64,000 bases of DNA, from assembly GCA_964563165.1 (NCBI GenBank), contig CAZLWA010000097.1:71893-135892 (forward strand). Reading direction: 5' to 3'. Made by a program: the position numbers and the translations under genes. The stretch is from an uncultured Bacteroidota bacterium. Lineage in GTDB: Bacteria > CLD3 > SB21. The notes beneath the pieces are model-generated. The model worked only from the letters and a program-made list of their open reading frames with translations. It ran no database searches and was not told the DNA's origin. Numbering within the stretch: the stretch's first letter is position 1; each line of letters opens with the position of its first letter. Of this stretch, positions 10,982-40,777 are shown one piece after another.

Positions 10982-11695
10982 TTACATCTTCTTTTTTATC
11001 TGTTTTTTCTCGATGAGATGACGCTGGGGCCTGACGGTGATCTCCGAAATAATCGTTCCTTCCGGCTGCAGCAAAATAGTTTCGATCAGCCGGGCAATCG
11101 TGTCCGCAGTAAGATAGCTTTCCGGATCCTCATGCTCTTTGAAGTTCGACCGGTCGTAAAAACTCGTTTTTGTGATATCCGGATTGATCGTCACGACCTT
11201 GACACCGCTTTTGCGCACTTCATCAAACAGCGAATTACCGAAATGCCTCAAACCCGCTTTCGTTGCGGCATAAGCGCAGCCGAATACACTCGTCTTCAGC
11301 GCGGCGACCGAAGAGACCGTGATTACAAAACCTTTGCTCCTTTTCAATTCGCGTAGTAATAATTTGGTCAGAACCAGCGGCGCCAGCAAATTCGTCTGCA
11401 CCATGCGTTCTATCTGCGCTACCGGAATTTCCTCATGCGGAGCGAAATACCCCACGCCTGCATTATTGATCAACACGTGAACGGCGCTTTCAGTTTCCAG
11501 AATATCTTTGACGACGCGTTCCAATTGACGGAGGTCTGTGACGTCGCATACCACCGGTAGAAAATTCCTGGCGCTGAATTTTGATTTTGAGAAATCGCGC
11601 GCAAGACCGTAGACTTTGTAATTGAGCTCGATCAATTTCCGGGCTGCGCTCAAACCGATACCGGAGGAAGCGCCGGTGACAATGGCTGTTTTCAT
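10982..11695 (-). CDS. short-chain dehydrogenase/reductase (SDR) family oxidoreductase
   Basis: It has TGASSGIG at the N-terminus of the true start (MKTAIVTGASSGIG, ATG at 11693-11695) and the catalytic YAATK motif. The track ORF has a 49-codon upstream extension. Confidence 0.75.
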   Translation of the reverse strand: MKTAIVTGASSGIGLSAARKLIELNYKVYGLARDFSKSKFSARNFLPVVCDVTDLRQLERVVKDILETESAVHVLINNAGVGYFAPHEEIPVAQIERMVQTNLLAPLVLTKLLLRELKRSKGFVITVSSVAALKTSVFGCAYAATKAGLRHFGNSLFDEVRKSGVKVVTINPDITKTSFYDRSNFKEHEDPESYLTADTIARLIETILLQPEGTIISEITVRPQRHLIEKKQIKKKM

Positions 11696-11729: not shown

Positions 11730-12758
11730 TTACATGAAGATTTTTTGTTCCGGAAGATACTCCGATAATAACCCGGACACAAATGCCAGGGCTTCCCGTC
11801 TCTCCTGCTCGCCGTAAGACACCGAATGGCCGTTAACCTCAAACGGATAGTGCAGAAGGTCCGAATCGTTTCGCTGCTTCTTCATCTTCCGCAAATACTC
11901 CGCATTCATGCGGAACACACCCGCGCTGACATCGTAAATTTTCGCGGGCTGAATTCGGCTGAACGTTTCTCGAATGCACTTCTCATAAGAGGCTTGCCAG
12001 CCGGGCGACAAAAGAATCGGATCGAAGCACAAGCGAACTTTCCACCCGTCTTCCGTCGCCTGCCGCACCGCTTCCAACCTCCTCAGAAATGAAGGCGCGC
12101 CGTTTTCCTGAGTTGAAGCGATTGCTCCAGGCGACAGCGTCCATGCCAGTACAACATTTTCGGCCGGTTTCATACGCTGAATCGCTTTATAATTGCCGCT
12201 TTTGGTACGAATTTCAACGGTTAATTCCTCTTTATCCCGCGCAAAATCGATCCACGCCGCGCTGTACGGCACGATATTTTCGAAAGCCAATAGATCCGTG
12301 TCGTAAGAAATAGCCAGATATACCGGGTGGCTCTGCAGTTTTTTTGAAACCGCGTCAAAAAAGTCATCCCCGTTGACGAAGACGACGACATTTGCCGACG
12401 GATACATACCCTGCAAATAACAATATGAGCAATTATAAACGCAATTTAATATCAATGAATTATAATAGAAATGCTTATGCCCCATCCGCTGACTGAAATC
12501 CGATCCTTCGTATAGGAAATGATCTTTCTTTACGGCGAGAATTAATTTCATCGAATGCTTCTGCAATTGAAAATCCTGATTCGGACGATTGAAAATATTT
12601 TTGTAATGACCGACGGGTATGCATTCGGCGTGCGGAAATTTGGCCAGTATGCGTTGCGCGGCAGGATAGCGCAGCGCGGCCTCTTCAAAATAGACATGTG
12701 AAAAATGATTATTGAATAAGGATTTGCCGGATACGGTCGAAGGCATGCTTGTTGTCAC
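11730..12758 (-). CDS. spore photoproduct lyase (SplB)-like radical SAM DNA repair enzyme
   Basis: The ORF is 342 aa. The cluster motif C-VYN-C-S-Y-C-Y matches the SPL C91-x3-C95-x-Y97-C98-Y99 arrangement. Confidence 0.6.
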   Translation of the reverse strand: MTTSMPSTVSGKSLFNNHFSHVYFEEAALRYPAAQRILAKFPHAECIPVGHYKNIFNRPNQDFQLQKHSMKLILAVKKDHFLYEGSDFSQRMGHKHFYYNSLILNCVYNCSYCYLQGMYPSANVVVFVNGDDFFDAVSKKLQSHPVYLAISYDTDLLAFENIVPYSAAWIDFARDKEELTVEIRTKSGNYKAIQRMKPAENVVLAWTLSPGAIASTQENGAPSFLRRLEAVRQATEDGWKVRLCFDPILLSPGWQASYEKCIRETFSRIQPAKIYDVSAGVFRMNAEYLRKMKKQRNDSDLLHYPFEVNGHSVSYGEQERREALAFVSGLLSEYLPEQKIFM

Positions 12759-13611
12759 TTTTAGTTTGAATGTCGATCGTTAAGAAAGTCCTTAACACGG
12801 CCAGCTCGCTTTGATTTCTCACTTTGTAGCTTTTGGACCAGTCCTGCAGTTGACGGAATTGCGTTTCCGTTAATCGCAGCCGCGTGCGAATGCTTGCGAG
12901 TAATTCAACTTCACTTTCAGAAAAAATGAGAGCCGGCAAAGGACTCACCTCCTGAAGGTGCCGAATACATTTCTCAATGTACGGCAGATTCTTTTCCACC
13001 AGCCCGCTGATGAATTCTTTTGAAATGTGGGATAGTTCGAGAAAATCGGAAATGATTTTCAAACACACTATCCGATGCGGCCCAAGGAACATCGCCGCCG
13101 CCTGAAAAAAACCGGAAGCCTCCATGTCCACCAAATCCAAATTCATTCCTGAAATATTCTCCGTAACCACCGGCCGGTCAAAGGTCACTAAAGAGGACTC
13201 GGGAAATTCGATTTTCCGGATCGGATCCGGAAAAAATTCCCGCCCGCTTGCGTGGTCGGTAACCTTGTTTATAACGCACACGTCACCGATCTTTCTTTGT
13301 GCATTCGCACTTCCGCAAATACCGAAATTAATGACCGCCGCGTGCTCGGACCTGTTATTCAATACGCATGTCGTCGCGACCGCGGACCTGATTTTCCCCA
13401 TTCCGCTGACGATCAAAGTAATTTCGGCGTTGCGAAACAGATCAAATTGAGTTGAGGATGGATCTTTTTTTAAATCAAATAAAGAGATCAACGGTTTGGC
13501 TTCGCAGTGCAGGGCCGTGACGATATCAATCAAAGGAATTTCAACTTTCTTTTTTTTTTTCGCATAATTCCAAAAGAACACCTCCGGTAGATTTGGGATG
13601 AACAAACGCAA
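12709..13611 (-). CDS. PNP/UDP-fold nucleosidase (MTA/SAH or 5'-deoxyadenosine nucleosidase / futalosine hydrolase family) with a ~90 aa C-terminal extension
   Basis: It has the MTAN-type motif LVDMEASGFFQAAAMF…ISDF and an N-terminal ALHCEAK region. The 5' 70 nt of the track ORF overlap the preceding VOC gene, so the true start is probably internal (e.g. TTG near 13533). The stop overlaps the SplB-like gene start by 50 nt. Confidence 0.5.
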   Translation of the reverse strand: MRLFIPNLPEVFFWNYAKKKKKVEIPLIDIVTALHCEAKPLISLFDLKKDPSSTQFDLFRNAEITLIVSGMGKIRSAVATTCVLNNRSEHAAVINFGICGSANAQRKIGDVCVINKVTDHASGREFFPDPIRKIEFPESSLVTFDRPVVTENISGMNLDLVDMEASGFFQAAAMFLGPHRIVCLKIISDFLELSHISKEFISGLVEKNLPYIEKCIRHLQEVSPLPALIFSESEVELLASIRTRLRLTETQFRQLQDWSKSYKVRNQSELAVLRTFLTIDIQTKSDNKHAFDRIRQILIQ

Positions 13612-13966
13612 TTTTAGAACCGTGCGCGCCGTTCTTAGGAAAACTGTCGATCAACTGAAAGCCTTTCTGCTTAAGGTCGGTCAATTTGGATTCGATATCC
13701 GTCACTTCAATCGCGATATGCGCGATGCCTCCTTTACCGCCGTGGCCGGCGATAAACTTGGCGATCGGGCTCGCCGGGTCCGTCGCTGCGAGTAATTCGA
13801 TCTTCGATTCACCGATCTGAAAAAACGCCGTTTCAACTTTTTGATCTGCAATGATCTCACGGCCCTGATACGTAAACCCCATCGCCCGGTAAATTTCAAT
13901 TGCCGATTCCAAATTGGTCACGGCAATACCAATGTGATCAATTTTATTAAGCTTCATGCTTCTCAT
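13541..13966 (-). CDS. mce: VOC/glyoxalase-fold methylmalonyl-CoA epimerase-like protein
   Basis: It starts MKLNKIDHIGIAVTNLESAIEIY… and has …GGIAHIAIEV…, a typical epimerase of about 135 aa. The C-terminal EKKKES is encoded by an A11 homopolymer. Confidence 0.65.
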   Translation of the reverse strand: MRSMKLNKIDHIGIAVTNLESAIEIYRAMGFTYQGREIIADQKVETAFFQIGESKIELLAATDPASPIAKFIAGHGGKGGIAHIAIEVTDIESKLTDLKQKGFQLIDSFPKNGAHGSKIAFVHPKSTGGVLLELCEKKKES

Positions 13967-14859: not shown

Positions 14860-15654
14860 TTACGTGTGGTCTATTCTGATTCTTTCGATATGCGTCGCTT
14901 TCCCGGTTTCCGTATCGACTGTAAAAAACGCCCCGTGCAATTTCAGCTCACCCTGCGACGGCTCGAATTTAAAATACGTTTGTAAAATGAATTTACTGAT
15001 TGCCGCTTCTTTTTGCATTCCGATCACGCCGTCGTGCGGACCCGTCATGCCGACGTCCGTAATAAATGCGGTGCCTTCCCGCGTAATGTGCTCATCGGCC
15101 GTCTGCACGTGGGTATGCGTGCCGAGGATCGCGCTGACTTTACCGTCTACGTAATGTTTGAACGCGATCTTTTCCGCCGTCGCTTCCGCATGAAAATCCA
15201 CGATGATCACATTCGTCTGACGTTTCAAGACCTCGATCTCGCGCTCGCCCGTACGAAACGGACATTCAAGATCATACATATACGTTCGTCCCTGCAAATT
15301 CAGGACCCCTACTTTAACACCGCCGGGCAATTTGAAAATAGCGGAACCTTTGCCGGGATTGCCGACCGGGTAATTATGCGGACGCAGTAAATAATTCTGA
15401 ATTTTCGGACTTTCGGCATAAAAAGTTTTTTTCCGGTCCCAAATGTGATTACCGCTGGTGATGACGTGCACCCCGAGCGTGAACAATTCCTCACACATGG
15501 TCTCGGTGATCCCTTTGCCTTCCAGCACATTTTCCCCGTTAGCCACGACAAAATCTGCCCGCCGGTCCTTGATGAGATTCGGCAGCAGCGCTCTGACGAG
15601 ATCCATTCCCGGCTTGCCGAAAATATCGGCAATGTGTAAACATCGTATTTCCAT
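14860..15654 (-). CDS. ymdB: YmdB-like calcineurin-type metallophosphoesterase (TIGR00282 family)
   Basis: It starts MEIRCLHIADIFGKPG… and has …VVANGEN…SGNHIWD…. The track ORF begins 23 codons upstream at 15723, but the MEIR start at 15654 matches the family. Confidence 0.75.
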   Translation of the reverse strand: MEIRCLHIADIFGKPGMDLVRALLPNLIKDRRADFVVANGENVLEGKGITETMCEELFTLGVHVITSGNHIWDRKKTFYAESPKIQNYLLRPHNYPVGNPGKGSAIFKLPGGVKVGVLNLQGRTYMYDLECPFRTGEREIEVLKRQTNVIIVDFHAEATAEKIAFKHYVDGKVSAILGTHTHVQTADEHITREGTAFITDVGMTGPHDGVIGMQKEAAISKFILQTYFKFEPSQGELKLHGAFFTVDTETGKATHIERIRIDHT

Positions 15655-15720
15655 TGAACTCCGTTTTTCAGATAATGTACAAAAACCGAACACATAAACA
15701 AGAATTGAAAGACATTGCAT

Positions 15721-15803
15721 CATTTGGTCATTTAGTCATTCGGTCATTTTGTGATTGAAATTCGAAAATGACAAAATGACTTAATGGTCAAATGACTAAA
15801 TAA
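15721..15803. promoter_or_regulatory. ~85-bp imperfect palindrome built from four GTCATTT / AAATGAC half-sites per arm, between the ubiD-like stop and the ymdB-like start
   Basis: ATTTGGTCATTTAGTCATTCGGTCATTTTGTGATT-gaaattcg-AAAATGACAAAATGACTTAATGGTCAAATGACTAAAT. The arms match at about 30 of 38 positions. Confidence 0.5.
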
Positions 15804-17631
15804 TGCCATGCAGGCTTTTCCCGGGCGCAGCCAGAGCGTCGACACGCTTCGTGATTTCCGGATCTTCCTCCAACGGCGGCGCGTGATGCGGTTTCATGCG
15901 CGCATCGATCACGAGCGGTCCCCGGCAGCCCCAGTGCTTATCGTAAACGAACGGGTCGACGCCGCTGATATCCGCCGCCGGATTAGAGCGCGTGAATGCG
16001 ACCCATAAAAAGTTATTCAGCGTTTTTGCCGCAAATTCACTGTCATCCGTTAATACGATAAGCGGAAACGCTTCAAAATATTTTTTATCCGAAAAAAACT
16101 GACAAAATAATTCCCGGCCTTTTTCGCCTTTGATCTTATCCCGGTACGCCGGCGCACCGACCGTCAGCACTCCGGGCATTACGATTTTGGGATGATGAAA
16201 TCCGTCCGGCATGGAAAGTTCCCGGGGCAGACTCGTACCGAGCTCCCGGCGAACGCCTCCCGCCGCCGCGATCACGACCTTCGAACCCTCATTTAAACCG
16301 GCGCCTGAATAGTCAAGCGTATCGATCGTCGTGCGGGTCTCAAAATGCAGATCCGTTTCCCAATTTACGCGCTGAAGCGCATGAATTAAGAATTCCTGAA
16401 TGTTATGAATATTCAGATCCGGATCATCTTCCTTCGCAATGATGAACAGGTATTTCGCCAGGGAAATCTGACCCTGCCCTAAGAGTGCATGAGCGATCGT
16501 CAATATTTCCTGCGGCCGTCTCTCGCCGTAAGGTACGTAACGCTCGCTTCCGATTGCCAGCAGCAGCGGGTGCACGCCCGCCGCGTCCACCGCATGAACG
16601 GCATGGAGCCCGGGAATGAGAGTCGGGATCACCGGTCCGGCAATTTCATGCACGAGTTCACCGAACGTTGTGTCTTCCTGCGGCGGCCTCCCAACCACGG
16701 TGAACGGCCAAATCGCATCGCGGCGATGAAAAATCTTTTCTATTTTCATTACGGGAAATTCATGCGTTAAACTGTAATATCCCAGATGATCCCCGAACGG
16801 GCCTTCCGGCAGCATGGTGTGCGGATCAACCGTTCCGATCATACAAAAATCCGCATCGCAGGCGAGCACGTAGCCTTCCGAATTTTTCACATAGCGAAAC
16901 CTTCTTCCGCCGAGCGCGCCGGCAAATGCAAGTTCTGAAAGACCTTCCGGTAAAGGCATCACGGCGGCCACCGCCAGAGCGGGCGCACCCCCCACGAAGA
17001 CGCTGACCTTCAATTTTTCGCCGCGTCGAATGGCTGCGTGATGATGAACGCCGATCCCACGATGAATTTGATAATGTAAACCGGCTTGTTCATTAGGTGC
17101 ATACTTGCCGCCGGAAATCTGGATCCGGTACATGCCGAGATTCGACATGGTCCTGCCTGGAAAATCCGGATGTTCGGTGTAGACCTGGGGCAGCGTGATA
17201 AAAGCGCCGCCGTCTTTAGGCCAGCATTGGATCTGCGGAAGTTGGTCGGCGCGGCATTGATGCGCAAACACAGCTCCCGACAACCTTCTCATCGGGAGTA
17301 GATTCAGCACACTCAGCGACAACGAAGAATAACGAAGCGGTTTCTTAAGTAAAAGCGAGGGATCAATTTTTAGTTCGACCAGTTTCTTTACGGCTTCGAG
17401 CGTATCGCGAAAAATAAATCGCGTCCGCTCCATCGTTCCGAATATATTGGACGCGCACGGAAAGGGCGTTCCCTTCACGTTCATATACCACAGCGCCGGT
17501 CCTCTGGCTTGGTATACCCTGCGTTGGATCTCTGCCATTTCCAGAAACGGATCCACTTCCTCCGTGATGCGGACGAGATGGCCGTTTCTTTCAAGATCGA
17601 GCAAACACGCGCGCAAGTTTTTATATGCCAT
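15796..17631 (-). CDS. UbiD-family (prenylated-FMN dependent) decarboxylase; longer than typical (611 aa vs ~490)
   Basis: The N-terminus MAYKNLRACLLDLERNGHLVRITEEVDPFLEMAEI is typical of UbiD and the C-terminal region is family-like. There is an internal insertion of roughly 100 aa. Confidence 0.75.
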   Translation of the reverse strand: MAYKNLRACLLDLERNGHLVRITEEVDPFLEMAEIQRRVYQARGPALWYMNVKGTPFPCASNIFGTMERTRFIFRDTLEAVKKLVELKIDPSLLLKKPLRYSSLSLSVLNLLPMRRLSGAVFAHQCRADQLPQIQCWPKDGGAFITLPQVYTEHPDFPGRTMSNLGMYRIQISGGKYAPNEQAGLHYQIHRGIGVHHHAAIRRGEKLKVSVFVGGAPALAVAAVMPLPEGLSELAFAGALGGRRFRYVKNSEGYVLACDADFCMIGTVDPHTMLPEGPFGDHLGYYSLTHEFPVMKIEKIFHRRDAIWPFTVVGRPPQEDTTFGELVHEIAGPVIPTLIPGLHAVHAVDAAGVHPLLLAIGSERYVPYGERRPQEILTIAHALLGQGQISLAKYLFIIAKEDDPDLNIHNIQEFLIHALQRVNWETDLHFETRTTIDTLDYSGAGLNEGSKVVIAAAGGVRRELGTSLPRELSMPDGFHHPKIVMPGVLTVGAPAYRDKIKGEKGRELFCQFFSDKKYFEAFPLIVLTDDSEFAAKTLNNFLWVAFTRSNPAADISGVDPFVYDKHWGCRGPLVIDARMKPHHAPPLEEDPEITKRVDALAAPGKSLHGII

Positions 17632-17768
17632 GGTAAATATCCTGTAACGTCAGCCATGTTAATAAAATTCATTGATAAATAAAATAGACAAATCGCACGA
17701 CGACATTTTAGTTGTTTATGGTTTCCGCGTTGAGTATTCTCCTTCACAACGCTTTGATCGGTGTAAAA

Positions 17769-19163
17769 ATGGAAAATCACTCTCTCGTCTGGCTCCGCCG
17801 CGACCTGCGGCTCGCGGATAACACCGCCCTGAACAATGCTATGCAGGAAAGCAATAAAGTGTCACTCATTTTTATTTTCGATGTCCATATTGTTAACGGA
17901 CTTCCTAAAAATGACCGGCGGATCTCGTTCATCTGGGAATCGCTCGAAGATATGAATGTTCAATTAGCTAAGAAAGGCGCGGATCCGATCGCCATAATAT
18001 TTGGAAAGCCGGAAGAGATCATACCTCAAATTCTACTGAGGACTTCCTTTACGGCCCTCTATCTCAATCATGACTATGAGCCCTATGCCATCGGTCGTGA
18101 TTCGATAATTGAGAAGTTCTGCCGTCGGAATCACATCTCCTTTCACGCATTTAAAGATCAGGTCATGTTTGACACATCCGAGATCATCAAAGACGATGGA
18201 ACCCCGTATAGAGTTTTCACTGCGTATAAGAACAAATGGCTGTTGGAATTAGAAAAATCCCCGCCGGATGCAGCTGCTACAAAAGCTTTCGTCTGGAAAA
18301 AAGTAGTACGTTTAAAAATTAATGACAAATCAGTTAACTCCCTGACCGATTTGGGATTTGATTCGCAAACAAATATTCTTACGGGTGGAGAAACGTCGGC
18401 TTTAAGAACGTGGAAAGCGTTCCAAAATAATTCTCTCGCCGGCTATTATAGAGTTCGCGATCTGCCGGCATTGAACCGAACTTCGCACCTATCCCCTTAT
18501 TTGCGGTTTGGCAATATTTCGATTCGCAGGCTGGTCCGTTATTTGGCGCCGCAAAAATCCGCCGGTGCGAGGGTTTTCTTGTCCGAGCTGATCTGGCGTG
18601 AATTTTTTATGATGATTCTTTTCCACTTCCGGCATGTTGTGACCGGTAACTTCAATTCTCAATATGACGGTATTCCATGGATAAATAACAAGCGCTGGTT
18701 TCGGGCATGGTGCACGGGCAGGACGGGATTTCCAATCGTGGACGCGGGCATGCGCGAACTCAATTCCACCGGTTACATGCATAACCGCGTGCGAATGATC
18801 GTCGCTTCATTTTTGGTTAAACATTTGCATGTGGACTGGCGATGGGGAGAAAAATATTTTGCCAAAAACCTGCTCGATTTTGAGTTGTCCAGCAACAATG
18901 GTAATTGGCAATGGGCGGCGGGAACCGGCGTGGATGCCGCTCCCTATTTTAGGATCTTCAATCCGCTGACCCAAAGTAAAAAATTCGATCCGGATGGAAT
19001 TTACATAAAAAAATGGATCCCGGAATTGCGCGGCCTCTCATCGAAAGAGATTCACGATCCGATGGATGCCGTGAGATCTGAATATCCAACGGCGATGATC
19101 GACCTGGGCAAAGAAAGACAAATTTGTTTGCAGCTCTACAGTACAATAAAAAAGCCCCGCTGA
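17769..19163 (+). CDS. phrB: deoxyribodipyrimidine (CPD) photolyase, class I
   Basis: It starts MENHSLVWLRRDLRLADNTAL and has the FAD-binding domain motifs WREFF, NNGNWQWAAG and YFRIFNP. The track ORF starts 19 codons earlier at 17712. Confidence 0.85.
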   Translation: MENHSLVWLRRDLRLADNTALNNAMQESNKVSLIFIFDVHIVNGLPKNDRRISFIWESLEDMNVQLAKKGADPIAIIFGKPEEIIPQILLRTSFTALYLNHDYEPYAIGRDSIIEKFCRRNHISFHAFKDQVMFDTSEIIKDDGTPYRVFTAYKNKWLLELEKSPPDAAATKAFVWKKVVRLKINDKSVNSLTDLGFDSQTNILTGGETSALRTWKAFQNNSLAGYYRVRDLPALNRTSHLSPYLRFGNISIRRLVRYLAPQKSAGARVFLSELIWREFFMMILFHFRHVVTGNFNSQYDGIPWINNKRWFRAWCTGRTGFPIVDAGMRELNSTGYMHNRVRMIVASFLVKHLHVDWRWGEKYFAKNLLDFELSSNNGNWQWAAGTGVDAAPYFRIFNPLTQSKKFDPDGIYIKKWIPELRGLSSKEIHDPMDAVRSEYPTAMIDLGKERQICLQLYSTIKKPR

Positions 19164-22007: not shown

Positions 22008-24149
22008 TTACTCGAATTTGTATTCGACTTTGGTCGTGATTTCCGGGCGTACGCGTACGGTGATCTCGTAAAATTTTGAGAAATTGGGGTGCGTGAACCG
22101 GATCTTGTGAAAACCCGGCTGAATTTCAATGACGCCGGGCGTTTGGCCATCGTCGCGCAAAACCGTATTGATGTAAATTTGTGCACCGGGCGGGTTGGTC
22201 GTACATTCCAGAAATCCGTTCGGATTTAAGAAAACAACCGTCGTTTGCGTCGTATCGTTTTTATCAACCTTGACCGACTTTATTTTCTTCTCCTTCTTAT
22301 TAACTGCTTTGATTTTATGTATGCTCGCCAGAAGCCTGGGAATATACACCGGCGCAGTTCCTGCCAGTGTTTCGCTGTCGTCCAGATAAACTTCGGCTCC
22401 CGTCGGATTGGATTTGACCAGCAGGACTCCGTACATCGGCTTCAAGGAGTCCGATAACTCAATGGTTGAATCCGCTTTGATGAAAAGTTTTCTCTCCACA
22501 TCTTCATATCCGTCCAGGTGCACGATGACATTTTGCTCGCCGACTTCGACGCTGTACTTGTTGGATTTGGAATTACGATACATCTTTTTTCCGCCGACGA
22601 TCAATGACACGGTTTCCGGGAAGGCTTTTTCAAGGGAAACCGTTCCGCGTAATTTCTCAAGAAATGCATCTATTTGGTTCAACCGGTATTTCCGGAGCGA
22701 AACGTTCTTCTTGGTGGTCACATGATCTTCTTTGGAAAATAACAACGTGTAATTTCCTCCCGGAAAAGGAAAATTCTCTATCGGCGTATAACCGATAAAT
22801 CTTCCGGAACTCGTTTCCACTTTCGCCATTTTGGGTACCGACGTAATCGTGAAATACGACGTATCGATGCCCGGCCGGATTTCCACAGGAGACAATTTGA
22901 GGTTGGCGTTCACTTCTTTGCCTTCACCCGTCGCAAAAATCAAGTCCGTCTCATACGTATCATAAAATTCGCGTTTAATGACGAGTCTATGTTCACCGCT
23001 GCCGATGCTGTCGATCCTCAAGATATTTCCGGCGGCAGCTATTTCGGTGCCGTCAATCGTGACCGTTGCATCCGGCACATTGATGGTCACCAGCAGCGAC
23101 GCGGGTTTTTTACCCGATTTCGATAAACTGCTTGAAGTCGAGCGGCCAAATGTGACCATCACAATGAGAAGTGCGGTGGCAATAAATGAATAAATAGACA
23201 GGCCAACCAGGAGCTGTTTGTAATCCAGGACCTCAAGGGCTTTTCGGATAACCGTATCGGTAAGATTCTCATTCTTGGCTTTGTCCGCGGCGGGAGCAGG
23301 CTGGGTCATGGTCAGCGTGAGTTCAACCCGGCGAATGTCCTGTGCCAAAAAATCCACCGTGCGGTAGCGTTCATCGGCATTACGGCGCAGCGCGCGCGAA
23401 ATGATAGTGTCAAAAACGGGTGGCACCAGCGGATTCACGACGCTGACCGGCGTTGGGTTTTCGTTGACGACCTTGTACATAACTTCCGTTAAATTGGCGC
23501 CCGTGAAGGCCTTGCGCTGAGTCAGTAATTCATAGAATACGGCGCCAAGTGAAAAGATATCCGCGCGATGATCGACCGGTCTTCCGGTGATCTGCTCCGG
23601 CGACATATATCCCGGCGTACCGAGAATCGTTCCGACCACAGTGTTAGTCGAGGTGGTCACTTTCGCAATTCCGAAATCCATGATCTTGGCGCTGCCGTCG
23701 TTCGTCACAATGACATTCGCAGGCTTGATATCGCGGTGAATCACGCCATTTTTGTGTGCGTAGCTCAAGCCGTCGCAAATGTGGAGCATGATCTCGATCA
23801 TACGATTGACCGGCAGCTCCGGTTCGTTTTCGATGATCTGTTCCAGCGTTTTTCCTTCGACGTATTCCATCGCGATGTATGTGGTGTCGCCGTCCTCTTC
23901 CACATCAAATATGGTGACAATATTGGGATGCGACAGCTTGCCGGCAAATTGCGCCTCGTGAAGAAACCGTTCACGAAATTCTTTAATTCTTTCCTCGGGT
24001 ACTTCCCCTTGCAGCTGCAGCGTTTTGATCGCAACGACGCGGTCGATCTTTTCATCCAGCGCTTTATACACGATCCCCATCGCGCCCTGGCCGAGCACGC
24101 TGACGATCTTAAACCGGCCGAGTCTCTCAATTTTAGAATCGTTGGGCAT
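22008..24149 (-). CDS. Hanks-type Ser/Thr protein kinase with a TM segment and C-terminal PEGA-like repeats
   Basis: Kinase motifs are GQGAMGIVYKA, VAIK, HRDIKPANV, DFGIAK and GTPGYMSPE. A TM helix lies around residue 310. The C-terminal repeats are of the type SNPTGAEVYLD… and TNPPGAQIYIN…. Confidence 0.8.
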   Translation of the reverse strand: MPNDSKIERLGRFKIVSVLGQGAMGIVYKALDEKIDRVVAIKTLQLQGEVPEERIKEFRERFLHEAQFAGKLSHPNIVTIFDVEEDGDTTYIAMEYVEGKTLEQIIENEPELPVNRMIEIMLHICDGLSYAHKNGVIHRDIKPANVIVTNDGSAKIMDFGIAKVTTSTNTVVGTILGTPGYMSPEQITGRPVDHRADIFSLGAVFYELLTQRKAFTGANLTEVMYKVVNENPTPVSVVNPLVPPVFDTIISRALRRNADERYRTVDFLAQDIRRVELTLTMTQPAPAADKAKNENLTDTVIRKALEVLDYKQLLVGLSIYSFIATALLIVMVTFGRSTSSSLSKSGKKPASLLVTINVPDATVTIDGTEIAAAGNILRIDSIGSGEHRLVIKREFYDTYETDLIFATGEGKEVNANLKLSPVEIRPGIDTSYFTITSVPKMAKVETSSGRFIGYTPIENFPFPGGNYTLLFSKEDHVTTKKNVSLRKYRLNQIDAFLEKLRGTVSLEKAFPETVSLIVGGKKMYRNSKSNKYSVEVGEQNVIVHLDGYEDVERKLFIKADSTIELSDSLKPMYGVLLVKSNPTGAEVYLDDSETLAGTAPVYIPRLLASIHKIKAVNKKEKKIKSVKVDKNDTTQTTVVFLNPNGFLECTTNPPGAQIYINTVLRDDGQTPGVIEIQPGFHKIRFTHPNFSKFYEITVRVRPEITTKVEYKFE

Positions 24150-36001: not shown

Positions 36002-38122
36002 GTGCCGATACAAAAACTTGGAAGATACGAAGTGGCAGAAGTTCTGGGCCAGGGCGCCATGGGCATCGTGTATAAAGGCATTGACCCGAAGATCGGACGC
36101 ACGGTAGCGCTCAAAACGCTCAAGACCACGGGAGAAATTCCTGCCGATCAGCTCTCCGAATTCAAACGCCGCTTTTCACAGGAAGCTCAATCCGCCGGAC
36201 GTCTCGCGCATCCTAATATTGTAACGATCTACGATGTCGGTGAAGAAGAAGGTCTCGCCTACATTGCCATGGAATTCATTAAAGGCAAGGCGCTCGACGA
36301 ATACATCGCTGAGAAGCATGCGTTCACGATCGACCAGATTGTGAGTATCATGACGCAGATTTGCGAAGGACTGGGCTACGCGCACAAGAACGGTGTCATT
36401 CATCGCGATATTAAACCGGCAAATATCGTTCTCACCGACGATAAGGTTGCCAAGATTACCGATTTCGGCATTGCAAAGATTACTTCCATGAGCGCCACGC
36501 AAAGCGGTGTGGTCGTCGGCACTCCCAGCTATATGTCACCGGAGCAAATTACGGGTAAAGGCGTGGACAACCGCTCGGATATTTTTTCGATCGGTGCGGT
36601 ATTTTATGAATTGCTGACTCACGAAAAAGCGTTTCCAGGCGACAATATCACGACCGTCATGTACCGTGTCGTGCACGAAAACCCCGCGCCGGTCACCAGC
36701 ATCAATATGGCGGTTCCGACGCAATTCACTCCCATACTGCTCAAAGCCATGGCAAAAAACCCTGCCGACCGTTACCCCGATGCGGAGACCATGTCAAAAG
36801 ATATTCAAAATTATAAGGCCTTCACGGCGATGCAATCGGGGGCCACACAGGTATTTCGCCCCGATTCGGCCGGAACGGTCATGATGACCGGCGCTGCGGA
36901 TGTTGGTGCAGTAACATCGGGCGGCATGCTGCAATCTGCGGTGAAAAACAAAAAGCTCCTGATACTTTCAGGCACAGCAGTGGCGGCGTTAATCGTTCTC
37001 TTATTTCTCGTTTTTGGAAATAAAGCGCCCTCGAATTCCGCGTCGCTCGAATTGAGTTTGAATATCTTTGACGGTACGGTGCGCGTCGATTCAGCGGATT
37101 TCAATATTGATAATGGAAAGCTGTTTATTCCCAAATTGGAAGCATCCGAACACTCCGTCAATATCAAGCACGAGGGCTACGAAGAATTCAAGACGAAACT
37201 CCTGTTCGCCGAAAACGAACAGAAAACATTCAATGTGGAAATGAAATTACTCCCTGTGCAGTTCCCTGCGGGTGTGGACACCGGCTTCATCACGGTCAAT
37301 GCGAAACCCGCAGTCGTAAAGGTTCTCACCAACGCCGGGGCTTTTATTTGTTACTCACCGGTGAACAAGCTGCCTTTTCCTGTTGGAAAGCGCACACTGG
37401 TTTTTTCGAGAGAGAATTATGTCAGTAAGGTGCTGGATATCGACCTGAGAAAGAAAAGAGAATTGAAACTTACACCTTCGCTCGATGCCAAGAAGGGACT
37501 TATTTCATTGGCCGATGTCAATCCGAAAAAAGTTCAAGTATTTGTGGATAATAATTTGCTCAAACCTGAAAAAGACGGCGTCACGTACACTCTGCAGATC
37601 GGAAAGCAGAAAATTCTACTGAAACAAGACGGTTTCAAGCCTCTCGAAAAGGAAATTACGGTTTCTGAAAAAGATGTTCTAAAGATCGACGCCAGCCTCG
37701 AACAGTTGTACGGCAAGCTTGCCATCACATCCAATCCGGACGGCGCCGATGTATTCATTGACGGCAGCAACGTAGGAAAGACTCCGCTCACTCTCGAATC
37801 CGTTGCAGCCGGTGTGCGCGACATTAAAGTTCAAAAAGGGGCGATGACGTCCATTAAAAAAATTACGGTGGCCGAGGGTAAAGAAAACTCCGCGGATTTT
37901 AAATTGCAGGCGCTAGTCGGGTACTTGAAATTTCTCATCAATCCGTGGGCAAAGATTTATATCGACGGCCGTGAATACGGCGCTTCGCCGCCGCTCGATA
38001 ACCTGGAATTGAAACCCGGAACGTATAAGATCAAGATGGAAAATCCTGCGTTCAAAGCGGTGACCAGGACAGTCACCATTACGGCCGGCGCGAGCGCAAC
38101 GCTGCAGTATGATTTCAAATAA
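36002..38122 (+). CDS. Hanks-type Ser/Thr protein kinase with a TM segment and C-terminal PEGA-like repeats (paralogue of 22008-24149)
   Basis: It has GQGAMGIVYKG, HRDIKPANIV, DFGIAK and GTPSYMSPE. A TM lies around residue 320. The C-terminal repeats are ITSNPDGADVFIDG… and INPWAKIYIDG…. Its N-terminal 300 aa are alignable by eye to the other kinase. Confidence 0.8.
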   Translation: MPIQKLGRYEVAEVLGQGAMGIVYKGIDPKIGRTVALKTLKTTGEIPADQLSEFKRRFSQEAQSAGRLAHPNIVTIYDVGEEEGLAYIAMEFIKGKALDEYIAEKHAFTIDQIVSIMTQICEGLGYAHKNGVIHRDIKPANIVLTDDKVAKITDFGIAKITSMSATQSGVVVGTPSYMSPEQITGKGVDNRSDIFSIGAVFYELLTHEKAFPGDNITTVMYRVVHENPAPVTSINMAVPTQFTPILLKAMAKNPADRYPDAETMSKDIQNYKAFTAMQSGATQVFRPDSAGTVMMTGAADVGAVTSGGMLQSAVKNKKLLILSGTAVAALIVLLFLVFGNKAPSNSASLELSLNIFDGTVRVDSADFNIDNGKLFIPKLEASEHSVNIKHEGYEEFKTKLLFAENEQKTFNVEMKLLPVQFPAGVDTGFITVNAKPAVVKVLTNAGAFICYSPVNKLPFPVGKRTLVFSRENYVSKVLDIDLRKKRELKLTPSLDAKKGLISLADVNPKKVQVFVDNNLLKPEKDGVTYTLQIGKQKILLKQDGFKPLEKEITVSEKDVLKIDASLEQLYGKLAITSNPDGADVFIDGSNVGKTPLTLESVAAGVRDIKVQKGAMTSIKKITVAEGKENSADFKLQALVGYLKFLINPWAKIYIDGREYGASPPLDNLELKPGTYKIKMENPAFKAVTRTVTITAGASATLQYDFK

Positions 38123-38851: not shown

Positions 38852-40777
38852 GTGGCTTCTTTAGTTTTGGTCGACAAGGACAATACCGGTCAGCGTTTCA
38901 TCGTTGAAAAAAACGAAATGACGATCGGCCGCAAACCCGAAAACGATTTTCTTATTTCCAATGTGATGATATCCGGCAAGCACGCGAAAGTAACGAAAAA
39001 TAAAAGTCAATTTTTCATCACCGATCTCAACAGCACCAATGGCACGTTTGTTAACGGCACACGTATCGTGGCACAGACGGAAATCAAGCATAAGGACCGG
39101 ATAAACTTGGGCGCCGTCAACCTGATTTTTCTTGAAGACGACAGCGCCACCATTGAATTCGATAAACTTCAGGGACCGCCGAAAGAAACGCCGTTGATGA
39201 AGCCCGAAGACACAAGCTACGCGACGCAAGTGAATTCGGAAAAATTGGCAGCCATGGTGCAATCGCTGAAGACCATCGTTCTGAGCGGCGCGGCGGACCG
39301 AAACGCGCTCACAAATCAATTCACGGAATTGGAGCACTCCTTTCAGCTGCTCAACAATCAATTGAAAGAATCGGAGAAGTTTCAGCAGAAACTCAACGTG
39401 CTTTACGAAGTCGGTAAAATAATTAACCACATTCTCGACCAGGACGAATTATTAAAGACCATTCTAGATCTGGCGCTGAAAGTAATGAAGGCCGATTGCG
39501 GCTTTATCATGCTTTACAACGATAAGAACGAACTGGAAGCAAAGATTTCCCGCAAGATCGAGGCGGATGAAATCGGCACGTCTTCGGCGACATTCAGCAC
39601 GACGATTTCCAAGCGGGTCGCTGAAACGGCTGAGAGTATCTTGACGTCGGACGCTCAGAATGACGACCGCTTTCAAAGCGGTGCAAGCATTATCTCCCAT
39701 CACATTCGCTCCGTGATCTGCACGCCCATGAAAAATAAGGACCAGAAGATCATTGGCGTGATTTACGTCGGATCCAATGTGATGTCCAACGTGTTCTCCA
39801 AGAGCGACGTGGAATTGCTGGAAGCCTTTTCGAATCACGCGGCCATCTCGATCGAGAACGCCAAGTTGTACGAAGAACGGCGCCGTAAGGAACATCTGAA
39901 GAGCGCGCTGGAACGTTACGTATCCAAGCAAATTGCCGAAGCGATCATTGACAAAGACGGATCCGGCGAAGTTCGCTTTCAGCCGGAAAAAAAACAAGTC
40001 ACGCTCGTTTTCACCGACGTTCGCGGGTTTACAACCCTGGCCGAGGGAATGAGTCCTGAAGATATGGTTGAAATCCTGAACCGGTACTTCACGGAAATGA
40101 TCAAGATCATTTTCAAGTACGGCGGGACCTTGGACAAATTCATCGGCGATGCCATCATGGCGATGTTTGGGGCGCCCGCTTCAACCGGACAGGACGCGCC
40201 GAACGCCGTCATGGCGGCGCTGGAGATGCAGAAGGAACTCATCGTTTTTAATGAAGAACAGAGAAAGTTGAAAAAACCGGCAATAAAAATCGGCATCGGA
40301 ATCAATACGGGTACGGTGGTCGTTGGCAATATCGGATCCGATCAGCGTATGGAATATACGGCCATCGGTGATACGGTGAATTTGGCGTCGCGCCTGGAGG
40401 GAGCCAATAAAGAATACAGTACCAATATCATGATCAGTGAATGGACACTCGAAGCGGTCAGCCGCATTGTGATTACGCGTGAATTGGATCTAATACGCGT
40501 CAAAGGCAAGGAAAAACCTGTTAAAGTATTCGAAGTCCTGGGATCTGCCTCGGACGGCATATCCTCAGATATGAAGAAAACCACCGAGTTATTCAGCCAG
40601 GGTTTAGCCGCTTATCGAAAGCAGAAATGGGATGAGGCGATCGGCCACTTCAATGCCGCCCTGGAAGTCAAGCCGGATGACGGGCCGTCGAAAGTCTATG
40701 TCGAACGCTCCGAAGTATTCAAAAAGAACCCGCCGGCGGGAAAGTGGGACGGCGTATTCACGATGCTCACAAAATAA
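38852..40777 (+). CDS. FHA - coiled-coil - GAF - class III adenylyl cyclase - C-terminal TPR multidomain protein (GTG start)
   Basis: The FHA domain includes …TIGRKPENDFLISNVMISGKHAKV…TDLNSTNGTFVNG. The GAF domain includes LYEVGKIINHILDQDELL…. The cyclase domain has VTLVFTDVRGFT, …LDKFIGDAIMAMFG and …IGDTVNLASRLE. Lys in LDKFIGD occupies the adenine-specifying position. It lies 15 nt after the lipoprotein stop. Confidence 0.8.
   Translation: MASLVLVDKDNTGQRFIVEKNEMTIGRKPENDFLISNVMISGKHAKVTKNKSQFFITDLNSTNGTFVNGTRIVAQTEIKHKDRINLGAVNLIFLEDDSATIEFDKLQGPPKETPLMKPEDTSYATQVNSEKLAAMVQSLKTIVLSGAADRNALTNQFTELEHSFQLLNNQLKESEKFQQKLNVLYEVGKIINHILDQDELLKTILDLALKVMKADCGFIMLYNDKNELEAKISRKIEADEIGTSSATFSTTISKRVAETAESILTSDAQNDDRFQSGASIISHHIRSVICTPMKNKDQKIIGVIYVGSNVMSNVFSKSDVELLEAFSNHAAISIENAKLYEERRRKEHLKSALERYVSKQIAEAIIDKDGSGEVRFQPEKKQVTLVFTDVRGFTTLAEGMSPEDMVEILNRYFTEMIKIIFKYGGTLDKFIGDAIMAMFGAPASTGQDAPNAVMAALEMQKELIVFNEEQRKLKKPAIKIGIGINTGTVVVGNIGSDQRMEYTAIGDTVNLASRLEGANKEYSTNIMISEWTLEAVSRIVITRELDLIRVKGKEKPVKVFEVLGSASDGISSDMKKTTELFSQGLAAYRKQKWDEAIGHFNAALEVKPDDGPSKVYVERSEVFKKNPPAGKWDGVFTMLTK

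Follow-up and report, generated by a model that had tools for sequence, protein, structure and literature searches.

The closest described relatives of the genes reported here are radical S-adenosylmethionine (SAM) enzymes and hydrolases that work with adenine nucleosides. SplB, the spore photoproduct lyase (SPL; EC 4.1.99.14; PDB 4FHC/4FHD; TIGR04070), stands for one superfamily, and the 5'-methylthioadenosine (MTA)/S-adenosylhomocysteine (SAH) nucleosidase (MTAN; MtnN/Pfs, EC 3.2.2.9) is an N-ribosyl hydrolase of another, PNP_UDP_1. The two kinds of protein meet in MqnE/MqnB (aminofutalosine synthase with futalosine hydrolase) and HpnH/HpnG (adenosylhopane synthase with a PNP homologue that removes adenine), where a radical SAM enzyme has a dedicated PNP_UDP_1-family enzyme. 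In AprD4/AprD3, a radical SAM dehydratase makes a carbonyl and is followed by a dedicated NAD(P)H reductase. The substrate of the queuine lyase QueL (PDB 6P78), a radical SAM enzyme, is a modified nucleobase that the nucleoside hydrolase QueK has first set free (bioRxiv 10.1101/2023.12.05.570228). Here we report a three-gene module in a 64,000-nucleotide stretch of DNA (hereafter the window) from an uncultured Bacteroidota bacterium (contig CAZLWA010000097.1). It consists of a nucleosidase gene (NUC), an SPL-fold radical SAM gene that overlaps it and a classical short-chain dehydrogenase/reductase (SDR) gene, all on the minus strand, and we take it to be a new system of the SPL family that has a nucleosidase subunit of its own. 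The module follows the same gene logic as MqnE/MqnB and HpnH/HpnG. AprD4, which is among the generic radical SAM fold matches, offers with AprD3 a possible model for the role of the SDR. The likeness to QueL would lie in a radical SAM lyase working with a nucleoside hydrolase, and the window protein resembles QueL only in its radical SAM core. The module fits only the broad SPL, PNP_UDP_1 and SDR superfamilies and falls outside SplB, MtnN, MqnB, HpnG and QueL.

Two overlapping minus-strand open reading frames (ORFs) form the core of the locus, 12709..13611 (300 aa, TTG start) and 11730..12758 (342 aa, GTG start), both present where the first-pass annotation had placed them. The second encodes the radical SAM protein. 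The cluster motif with two tyrosines that had been noted in it is confirmed: C106-VYN-C110-S-Y112-C113-Y114-LQ (C106-x3-C110-x-Y112-C113-Y114 at 12417..12443, in the numbering of the 342-aa ORF) matches Geobacillus SPL column by column at C90-MGH-C94-H-Y96-C97-Y98-LQ. All of the 18 family members aligned share C106, C110, Y112 and C113, and Y114 is nearly invariant among them. The proposed place in the SPL superfamily is borne out by a Pfam SPL match (PF20903, 51.1 bits against a gathering score of 27) and by a structure model that matches the SPL fold over its full length, beta-hairpin included, at 17% identity. Alignment to crystallised SPL shows that the SAM-binding residues Lys174 and Ser195 are retained as K186 and T207, and Arg273 as R283. 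Fold, radical relay and a cluster motif with equivalents of Tyr96 and Tyr98 are common to this protein and SplB.

An identification as SplB itself fails, with a score of 64.9 bits against the SplB equivalog TIGR04070, whose cut-off is 400. The H-atom donor of SPL, its fourth conserved cysteine (Cys140/141), is replaced at position 140 by an invariant Tyr152 (codon at 12303..12305), as seen both in the phmmer alignment to the C140S/C140A mutant chains 4fhg/4fhe and in the family alignment. Invariant in the family too are Y52, R58, Q61, Q66, Y98, Y99, D155, E160, W169, R184, E218, R242, D246 and Y315, which together with Tyr152 are predicted to line the substrate pocket. Clostridium SPL has an alternative H-donor position, Cys77, described together with the residues that hold the dihydrothymine (PMC3467042). 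No conserved cysteine stands at that position in the family, where position 76 is a variable Ser, Ala or Pro; many Firmicute members have a cysteine three residues further on, which is absent from the window's clade. The lesion-binding residues are not conserved either: Arg193 has become A205, Glu268 has become G280, the Lys309 position is unconserved and not lysine, and the hairpin is three residues shorter than in SPL and without the tip residue Tyr305. The family forms a tight orthologous group of 2,037 protein clusters, with at least 544 matching stretches in species-representative genomes, 45-66% identity to the window protein among the 120 best matches and a median isoelectric point (pI) of 8.5. 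Unlike SplB, it is nearly always paired with a nucleosidase, usually paired with an SDR, and occurs in non-sporulating phyla. On this evidence, the radical SAM protein belongs to a distinct SPL-fold family and is not SplB.

The upstream ORF encodes, as the first-pass annotation had proposed, a MTAN-type nucleosidase (PNP_UDP_1, PF01048, 56.5 bits against a gathering score of 25.1). The protein adopts the MTAN fold, and the four catalytic residues of the hydrolase, Glu and Asp among them, are intact. Its invariant E11, D136-M137-E138, K159 and D163 correspond to Glu12, Met173/Glu174, Arg193 and Asp197 of E. coli MTAN, so that NUC matches the MTAN-type N-ribosyl hydrolases in fold and in the equivalents of Glu12, Glu174, Asp197 and Arg193. 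Residues that bind adenine and a free 2',3'-diol are also retained, and NUC is predicted to be a catalytically competent adenine-nucleoside hydrolase. Every NCBIfam equivalog score nevertheless lies far under its cut-off. The top family is futalosine hydrolase (TIGR03664, 49.6 bits; cut-off 124.7), followed by the MTA/SAH nucleosidase models PRK05584 (39.1 against 169) and TIGR01704 (29.8 against 73.8) and by HpnG (TIGR03468, 23 against 187.1). Beyond the sub-threshold score, the module also differs from MqnB in having no mqn genes conserved beside it. In databases, the proteins of the module go under names that are either generic or mistaken: 'spore photoproduct lyase', 'DNA repair photolyase', 'phosphorylase' and 'hypothetical'.

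What sets NUC apart from MtnN/Pfs is an additional C-terminal helical domain. Such an extension had been proposed before, and it stands; the sizes given then, a core of about 200 aa and an extension of about 90 aa, do not. The secondary structure divides the protein into a MTAN-fold catalytic core of about 170 aa (13024..13533, approximately residues 1-170 of the 274-aa form) and an extension of about 100 aa with five to six helices (12709..13023). The extension carries the conserved motif LRLTxTQxHQL...YKxR...K.K.E.KK.F..IR and has a basic end, with a median pI of 9.9 over its last 65 aa. It has no sequence relative in Pfam or the PDB. A profile of the domain found 621 matches among 1.84 billion representative proteins, and the best 150 of these were all C-terminal in NUC-sized proteins or fragments of such proteins. 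The profile search indicates that the domain is private to the NUC family. NUC also departs from MtnN/Pfs in that its gene overlaps, or is fused to, one specific radical SAM gene, and in that a few lineages have lost the catalytic residues.

The most likely start of NUC is TTG 13533, giving a gene at 12709..13533 and a protein of 274 aa. This start is favoured because homologues begin there and are 270-290 aa long; it sits just past the stop of an upstream methylmalonyl-CoA epimerase (MCE) gene. Other possible starts are GTG 13581 (290 aa, the deposited annotation) and TTG 13611, which opens the 300-aa ORF. A run of 11 A residues at 13549-13559, where the epimerase and NUC genes adjoin, is a slippage-prone homopolymer and falls within the N-terminal extension of NUC as annotated. 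For the radical SAM gene (11730..12746), ATG 12746, which yields 338 aa, is a more likely start than GTG 12758 (342 aa). A database protein, P0001, of 338 aa and 100% identical to the radical SAM protein, agrees with this choice. The overlap of the two genes then measures 38 nt (12709..12746) and not the 50 nt first reported, with the radical SAM frame at +1 relative to NUC. Since the radical SAM frame is +1, a programmed -1 frameshift producing a fusion cannot apply.

The third gene, overlooked in the first-pass annotation, starts 34 nt downstream of the radical SAM gene. It encodes a classical SDR of 237 aa (10982..11695) with an adh_short domain (PF00106, 147 bits) and the TGxxxGIG and S...YxxxK motifs, visible in the translation as VTGASSGIG and YAATK. 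The SDR reaches no NCBIfam equivalog, and its nearest solved structure is clavaldehyde dehydrogenase (2jah), an aldehyde reductase. Neighbouring SDRs encoded downstream of the radical SAM gene at other loci are 37-69% identical.

We surveyed 81 loci, 80 from a genome scan and one found earlier. The conservation of the pair had been named beforehand as a test of the first-pass annotation, and the two genes are indeed conserved together: in 74 of the 81 loci the radical SAM gene is immediately preceded by NUC (73 on a strict count, the copy at locus L038 being split), with a nearly constant overlap geometry and a fusion in Fusobacterium. The SDR lies directly downstream in 48 loci, and all three genes occur together in 47. 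Hosts include Bacillota, Bacteroidota-like lineages, Balneolales, Opitutales, Lentisphaeria, Latescibacterota, Gemmatimonadota, Zixibacteria, Bdellovibrionota, Leptospira and a Burkholderiales metagenome-assembled genome (MAG), so that the NUC-radical SAM pairing spans at least ten phyla. The loci closest to the window come from MAGs classified no further than 'bacterium' and from one MAG of an uncultured Bacteroidota. The overlap geometry could be measured in 50-odd loci. In most of them, the NUC stop falls 1-7 nt ahead of the codons for a conserved FSH, and the radical SAM gene has its only usable start 29-38 nt within NUC, the relative frame being the same throughout. The overlap encodes an N-terminal peptide of the radical SAM protein, S-L-F/W-N...FSH, whose amino acid sequence is conserved and which is disordered in the structure model. 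Clustering all ORFs of the 81 loci revealed no fourth conserved gene.

Four Leptospiraceae loci (L015, L016, L046 and L075) have no NUC beside the radical SAM gene, which is preceded there by a lipoprotein-like alpha/beta hydrolase (PGAP1-like). Pathogenic Leptospira do have NUC homologues that bear the C-terminal domain (P0194), presumably at other genome sites.

Two further arrangements bear on how the proteins work together. In Fusobacterium vincentii (NZ_CP084075.1; locus L083, 5125-6996), NUC and the radical SAM protein form a single polypeptide of 623 aa, followed by the SDR gene. Over its N-terminal part, which includes the NUC C-terminal domain, it shares 35% identity with the NUC of the window, and over its C-terminal part it shares 42% with the window's radical SAM protein; the conserved radical SAM N-terminal peptide serves as the in-frame linker. 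The 120 best matches to the fusion were all the 623-aa protein, annotated 'spore photoproduct lyase', and those with a named source came from F. nucleatum, F. animalis, F. polymorphum and F. watanabei. This recurrence at one exact length shows a genuine fusion that is stably maintained in the F. nucleatum complex. The source record, of 2.1 Mb, is labelled a plasmid but is evidently a chromosome.

The second arrangement is a NUC that has lost its catalytic residues, found in a gut Clostridia contig (MT835514.1; L084 4829-6969), a Spirochaetales MAG (L031 4085-4957) and a Bdellovibrionales MAG (L040 701-1468). In all three, the degenerate NUC still lies immediately upstream of the radical SAM gene, and the SDR is retained in two of the three lineages (L040 and L084). 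The gene order in L084 is SDR, a NUC remnant of 160 aa that comprises little beyond the C-terminal domain, and the radical SAM gene. That a catalytically dead NUC is kept beside the radical SAM gene argues for a role of NUC beyond catalysis. Most simply, NUC would be a subunit of a complex, held there by its private C-terminal domain. The structure models are of single chains, and the case for a complex comes from the genetics.

The explanation we favour, tentatively, is that the three genes are one functional unit, in which a radical SAM-nucleosidase complex hydrolyses the 5'-deoxyadenosine product and the SDR reduces a carbonyl. The SPL-fold enzyme would bind a [4Fe-4S] cluster and SAM, generate a 5'-deoxyadenosyl radical and carry out an SPL-like reaction, H-abstraction followed by bond scission, with Tyr152 as the likely H-donor in place of the cysteine. 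Its substrate is probably nucleobase- or nucleoside-like, and not the spore photoproduct. NUC would be its stoichiometric partner, co-translated through the gene overlap and docked by the private helical domain. There it would hydrolyse the 5'-deoxyadenosine freed by the radical SAM active site to adenine and 5-deoxyribose, clearing a product inhibitor at its source. The NADPH-type SDR would reduce a carbonyl that arises along the way, be it in the product of the radical SAM enzyme or in the sugar set free. 5'-Deoxyadenosine is known to inhibit radical SAM enzymes and to be accepted by MTAN-family enzymes (PMC8102628, PMC6079011). This explanation would require no new chemistry, and it tolerates dead nucleosidases, whose persistence next to the radical SAM gene fits an auxiliary role that is both catalytic and structural. 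The folds, the catalytic residues, the conserved pairing, the overlap and the fusion are shown and speak for it, as do the family-private C-terminal domain and the conserved N-terminal peptide of the radical SAM protein; the complex, 5'-deoxyadenosine as the substrate of NUC, the part played by the SDR and the nature of the primary substrate are inferred.

Several points weigh against dedicated 5'-deoxyadenosine disposal, plausible though it may be. We know of no other radical SAM enzyme with a dedicated 5'-deoxyadenosine nucleosidase. A housekeeping MTAN normally suffices for cells, so that need alone does not explain the tight coupling. The highly conserved SDR is left with no defined substrate. 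NUC also scores futalosine hydrolase (49.6 bits) above MTAN (39 bits), and the substrate of futalosine hydrolase is an adenosylated pathway intermediate, not a by-product.

An alternative that we hold to be only a little less probable, and that would be the more novel of the two, is that the radical SAM enzyme adenosylates its substrate. The 5'-deoxyadenosyl radical would add to an unsaturated substrate and Tyr152 would quench the adduct; NUC would then strip the adenine and the SDR would reduce the ribosyl aldehyde to a polyol. The outcome would be a substrate bearing a five-carbon sugar or polyol as a side chain, comparable to what happens in futalosine chemistry and with the side chain of hopanoids. 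The two adenosyl-radical-addition enzymes known to us, HpnH and MqnE, each have a dedicated PNP_UDP_1 enzyme; MqnE is followed by MqnB, a member of this family. HpnH is likewise followed by HpnG, a dedicated PNP_UDP_1-family enzyme, and in hopanoid synthesis ribosylhopane is later reduced to a tetrol (PMC13459092). This last reduction parallels the SDR of the module. Adenosylation gives a role to all three genes, including an SDR whose nearest solved structure is an aldehyde reductase, and consecutive enzymes would suit both the gene overlap and the fusion. Futalosine hydrolase as the top family of NUC, with HpnG also among its matches, points the same way, but all these equivalog scores lie far under their cut-offs. 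Moreover, no adenosylating member of the SPL family is known, and no acceptor can be named that is common to Clostridia, Fusobacterium, Leptospira, Opitutales and the window organism. The dead NUCs that stand beside an intact SDR in L040 and L084 would require a housekeeping MTAN to stand in. A more specific form, to which we give nearly the same probability, would make the SPL-fold enzyme a 5'-deoxyadenosyl transferase instead of a lyase. Its unsaturated acceptor might be the C5=C6 bond of a pyrimidine, in either a nucleoside or a nucleic acid, with NUC and the SDR finishing a C-linked pentose or pentitol.

We consider it unlikely that the radical SAM protein is a nucleic-acid lyase, acting on a thymine-C5-methylene-type DNA or RNA lesion or modification other than the spore photoproduct. 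In that case the basic NUC C-terminal domain would help binding, and NUC would clear 5'-deoxyadenosine. The SPL architecture is complete, with its beta-hairpin, and thymine derivatives of DNA are the substrates of the other SPL-superfamily branches that we found described (SPL, phage M6 gp53 and SOS-linked SplB-like proteins; PMC3467042, PMC8989533, PMC3765255). The pI values given above for the radical SAM proteins and for the end of the NUC C-terminal domain would also suit nucleic-acid binding. Two neighbours fit as well: an EndoQ-like gene, weakly matching PHP_C and HhH, that immediately precedes NUC in five Caldicoprobacter-type loci (L057, L058, L065, L074 and L077), and a gene of the uracil-DNA glycosylase (UDG) superfamily near the Fusobacterium module, two genes downstream of the SDR (L083 8714-9310). 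These DNA-repair neighbours are, however, restricted to particular lineages. The equivalents of Arg193, Glu268, Lys309, Tyr305 and Cys140 are gone and the hairpin is shorter, the NUC C-terminal domain has no detectable resemblance to a known DNA-binding domain, and the SDR has no obvious role in DNA repair. No Cheo-type LexA box (GAAC-N4-GTTC) was found within 300 nt upstream at 70 loci, which leaves SOS regulation unsupported.

We judge it improbable that the nucleosidase acts first in a salvage pathway, with NUC hydrolysing MTA, SAH or 5'-deoxyadenosine, the radical SAM enzyme cleaving the released 5-substituted ribose and the SDR reducing a keto-sugar. An example would be the radical cleavage of a C-S bond to give methanethiol or homocysteine, amounting to an oxygen-independent sulfur salvage. 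The retained diol- and adenine-binding residues imply that the substrate of NUC is a free adenine ribonucleoside, a universal substrate would suit both the identity of 45-57% between members from different phyla and the large number of anaerobes among the hosts, and each of the three genes again has a role. Yet met, mtn and lux genes are not conserved nearby, and the region ahead of NUC in 13 Firmicute loci yielded no riboswitch, for SAM or otherwise. Sugars are without precedent as substrates of the SPL fold, the first step would fail wherever NUC is dead, and the proposal is built from inference only.

A genuine SplB in a non-sporulating host, suggested by the cluster motif with both tyrosines, the Pfam SPL match and the database records named 'spore photoproduct lyase', can be set aside as highly improbable given the TIGR04070 score, the 17% identity, the missing H-donor cysteine and lesion-binding residues, and a distinct orthologous group that occurs in non-sporulating Fusobacterium and Leptospira as well as in Clostridia.

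Anti-phage defense was also considered and rejected. The single PADLOC match, weak and partial, was that between NUC and the candidate model PDC-M60C (25.7 bits); the radical SAM protein and the SDR had none. Homologues in a phage collection come from two contigs from human faeces, L084 and L085 (MT835514.1 and MT835770.1; 'UNVERIFIED: Bacteriophage sp.'), which carry the three-gene module in the same operon among ordinary bacterial neighbours. These look like bacterial contigs rather than phages and lend the defense reading no support.

The genes around the module are lineage-specific. The photolyase, folD and epimerase emerged from the clustering as local neighbours only; elsewhere the module is accompanied by MiaB in Opitutales and by EndoQ-like and DUF4380 genes in Caldicoprobacter-type loci. 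The epimerase gene (13541-13966; TIGR03081, 151.6 bits) abuts NUC in the window, and this MCE-NUC synteny recurs only in the closest relatives (L002, L003, L006, L008 and L063), a clade in which folD, MCE, NUC, the radical SAM gene and the SDR may form one transcription unit. Farther upstream lie a YmdB-like phosphoesterase (14860-15723), a UbiD-family decarboxylase of 611 aa (15796-17631, about 2 kb away) and a class I CPD-type photolyase (17712-19163; PF00875 and PF03441), none of which is conserved with the module in other genomes. The photolyase, to which the first-pass annotation had drawn attention, therefore belongs outside the conserved neighbourhood. The window also encodes two Ser/Thr protein kinases with C-terminal PEGA domains (22008-24149 and 36002-38122) and a FHA-GAF-adenylate/guanylate cyclase protein (38852-40777). 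Its content is that of an ordinary chromosome, with no sporulation genes.

We found no annotation of, or paper on, the three-gene module in a literature search that covered subscription journals incompletely. The module reveals a widespread branch of the SPL fold that is routinely mislabelled 'spore photoproduct lyase' or 'DNA repair photolyase'. Its obligate pairing with a MTAN-fold protein, which takes the three forms of overlap, fusion and a partner retained after catalytic loss, marks a multi-component system. Either of the two leading explanations, if true, would be new to radical SAM enzymology. Disposal of 5'-deoxyadenosine would make this the first radical SAM enzyme with a built-in subunit for that purpose, and adenosylation would make it the third adenosyl-radical-addition pathway, after futalosine and hopanoids. 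A 5'-deoxyadenosyl transferase would imply a modification not known before, present in many uncultured phyla as well as in Fusobacterium nucleatum, Clostridia and Leptospira. The F. nucleatum group that carries the fusion is medically important, and its single-chain form is a ready construct for biochemistry.

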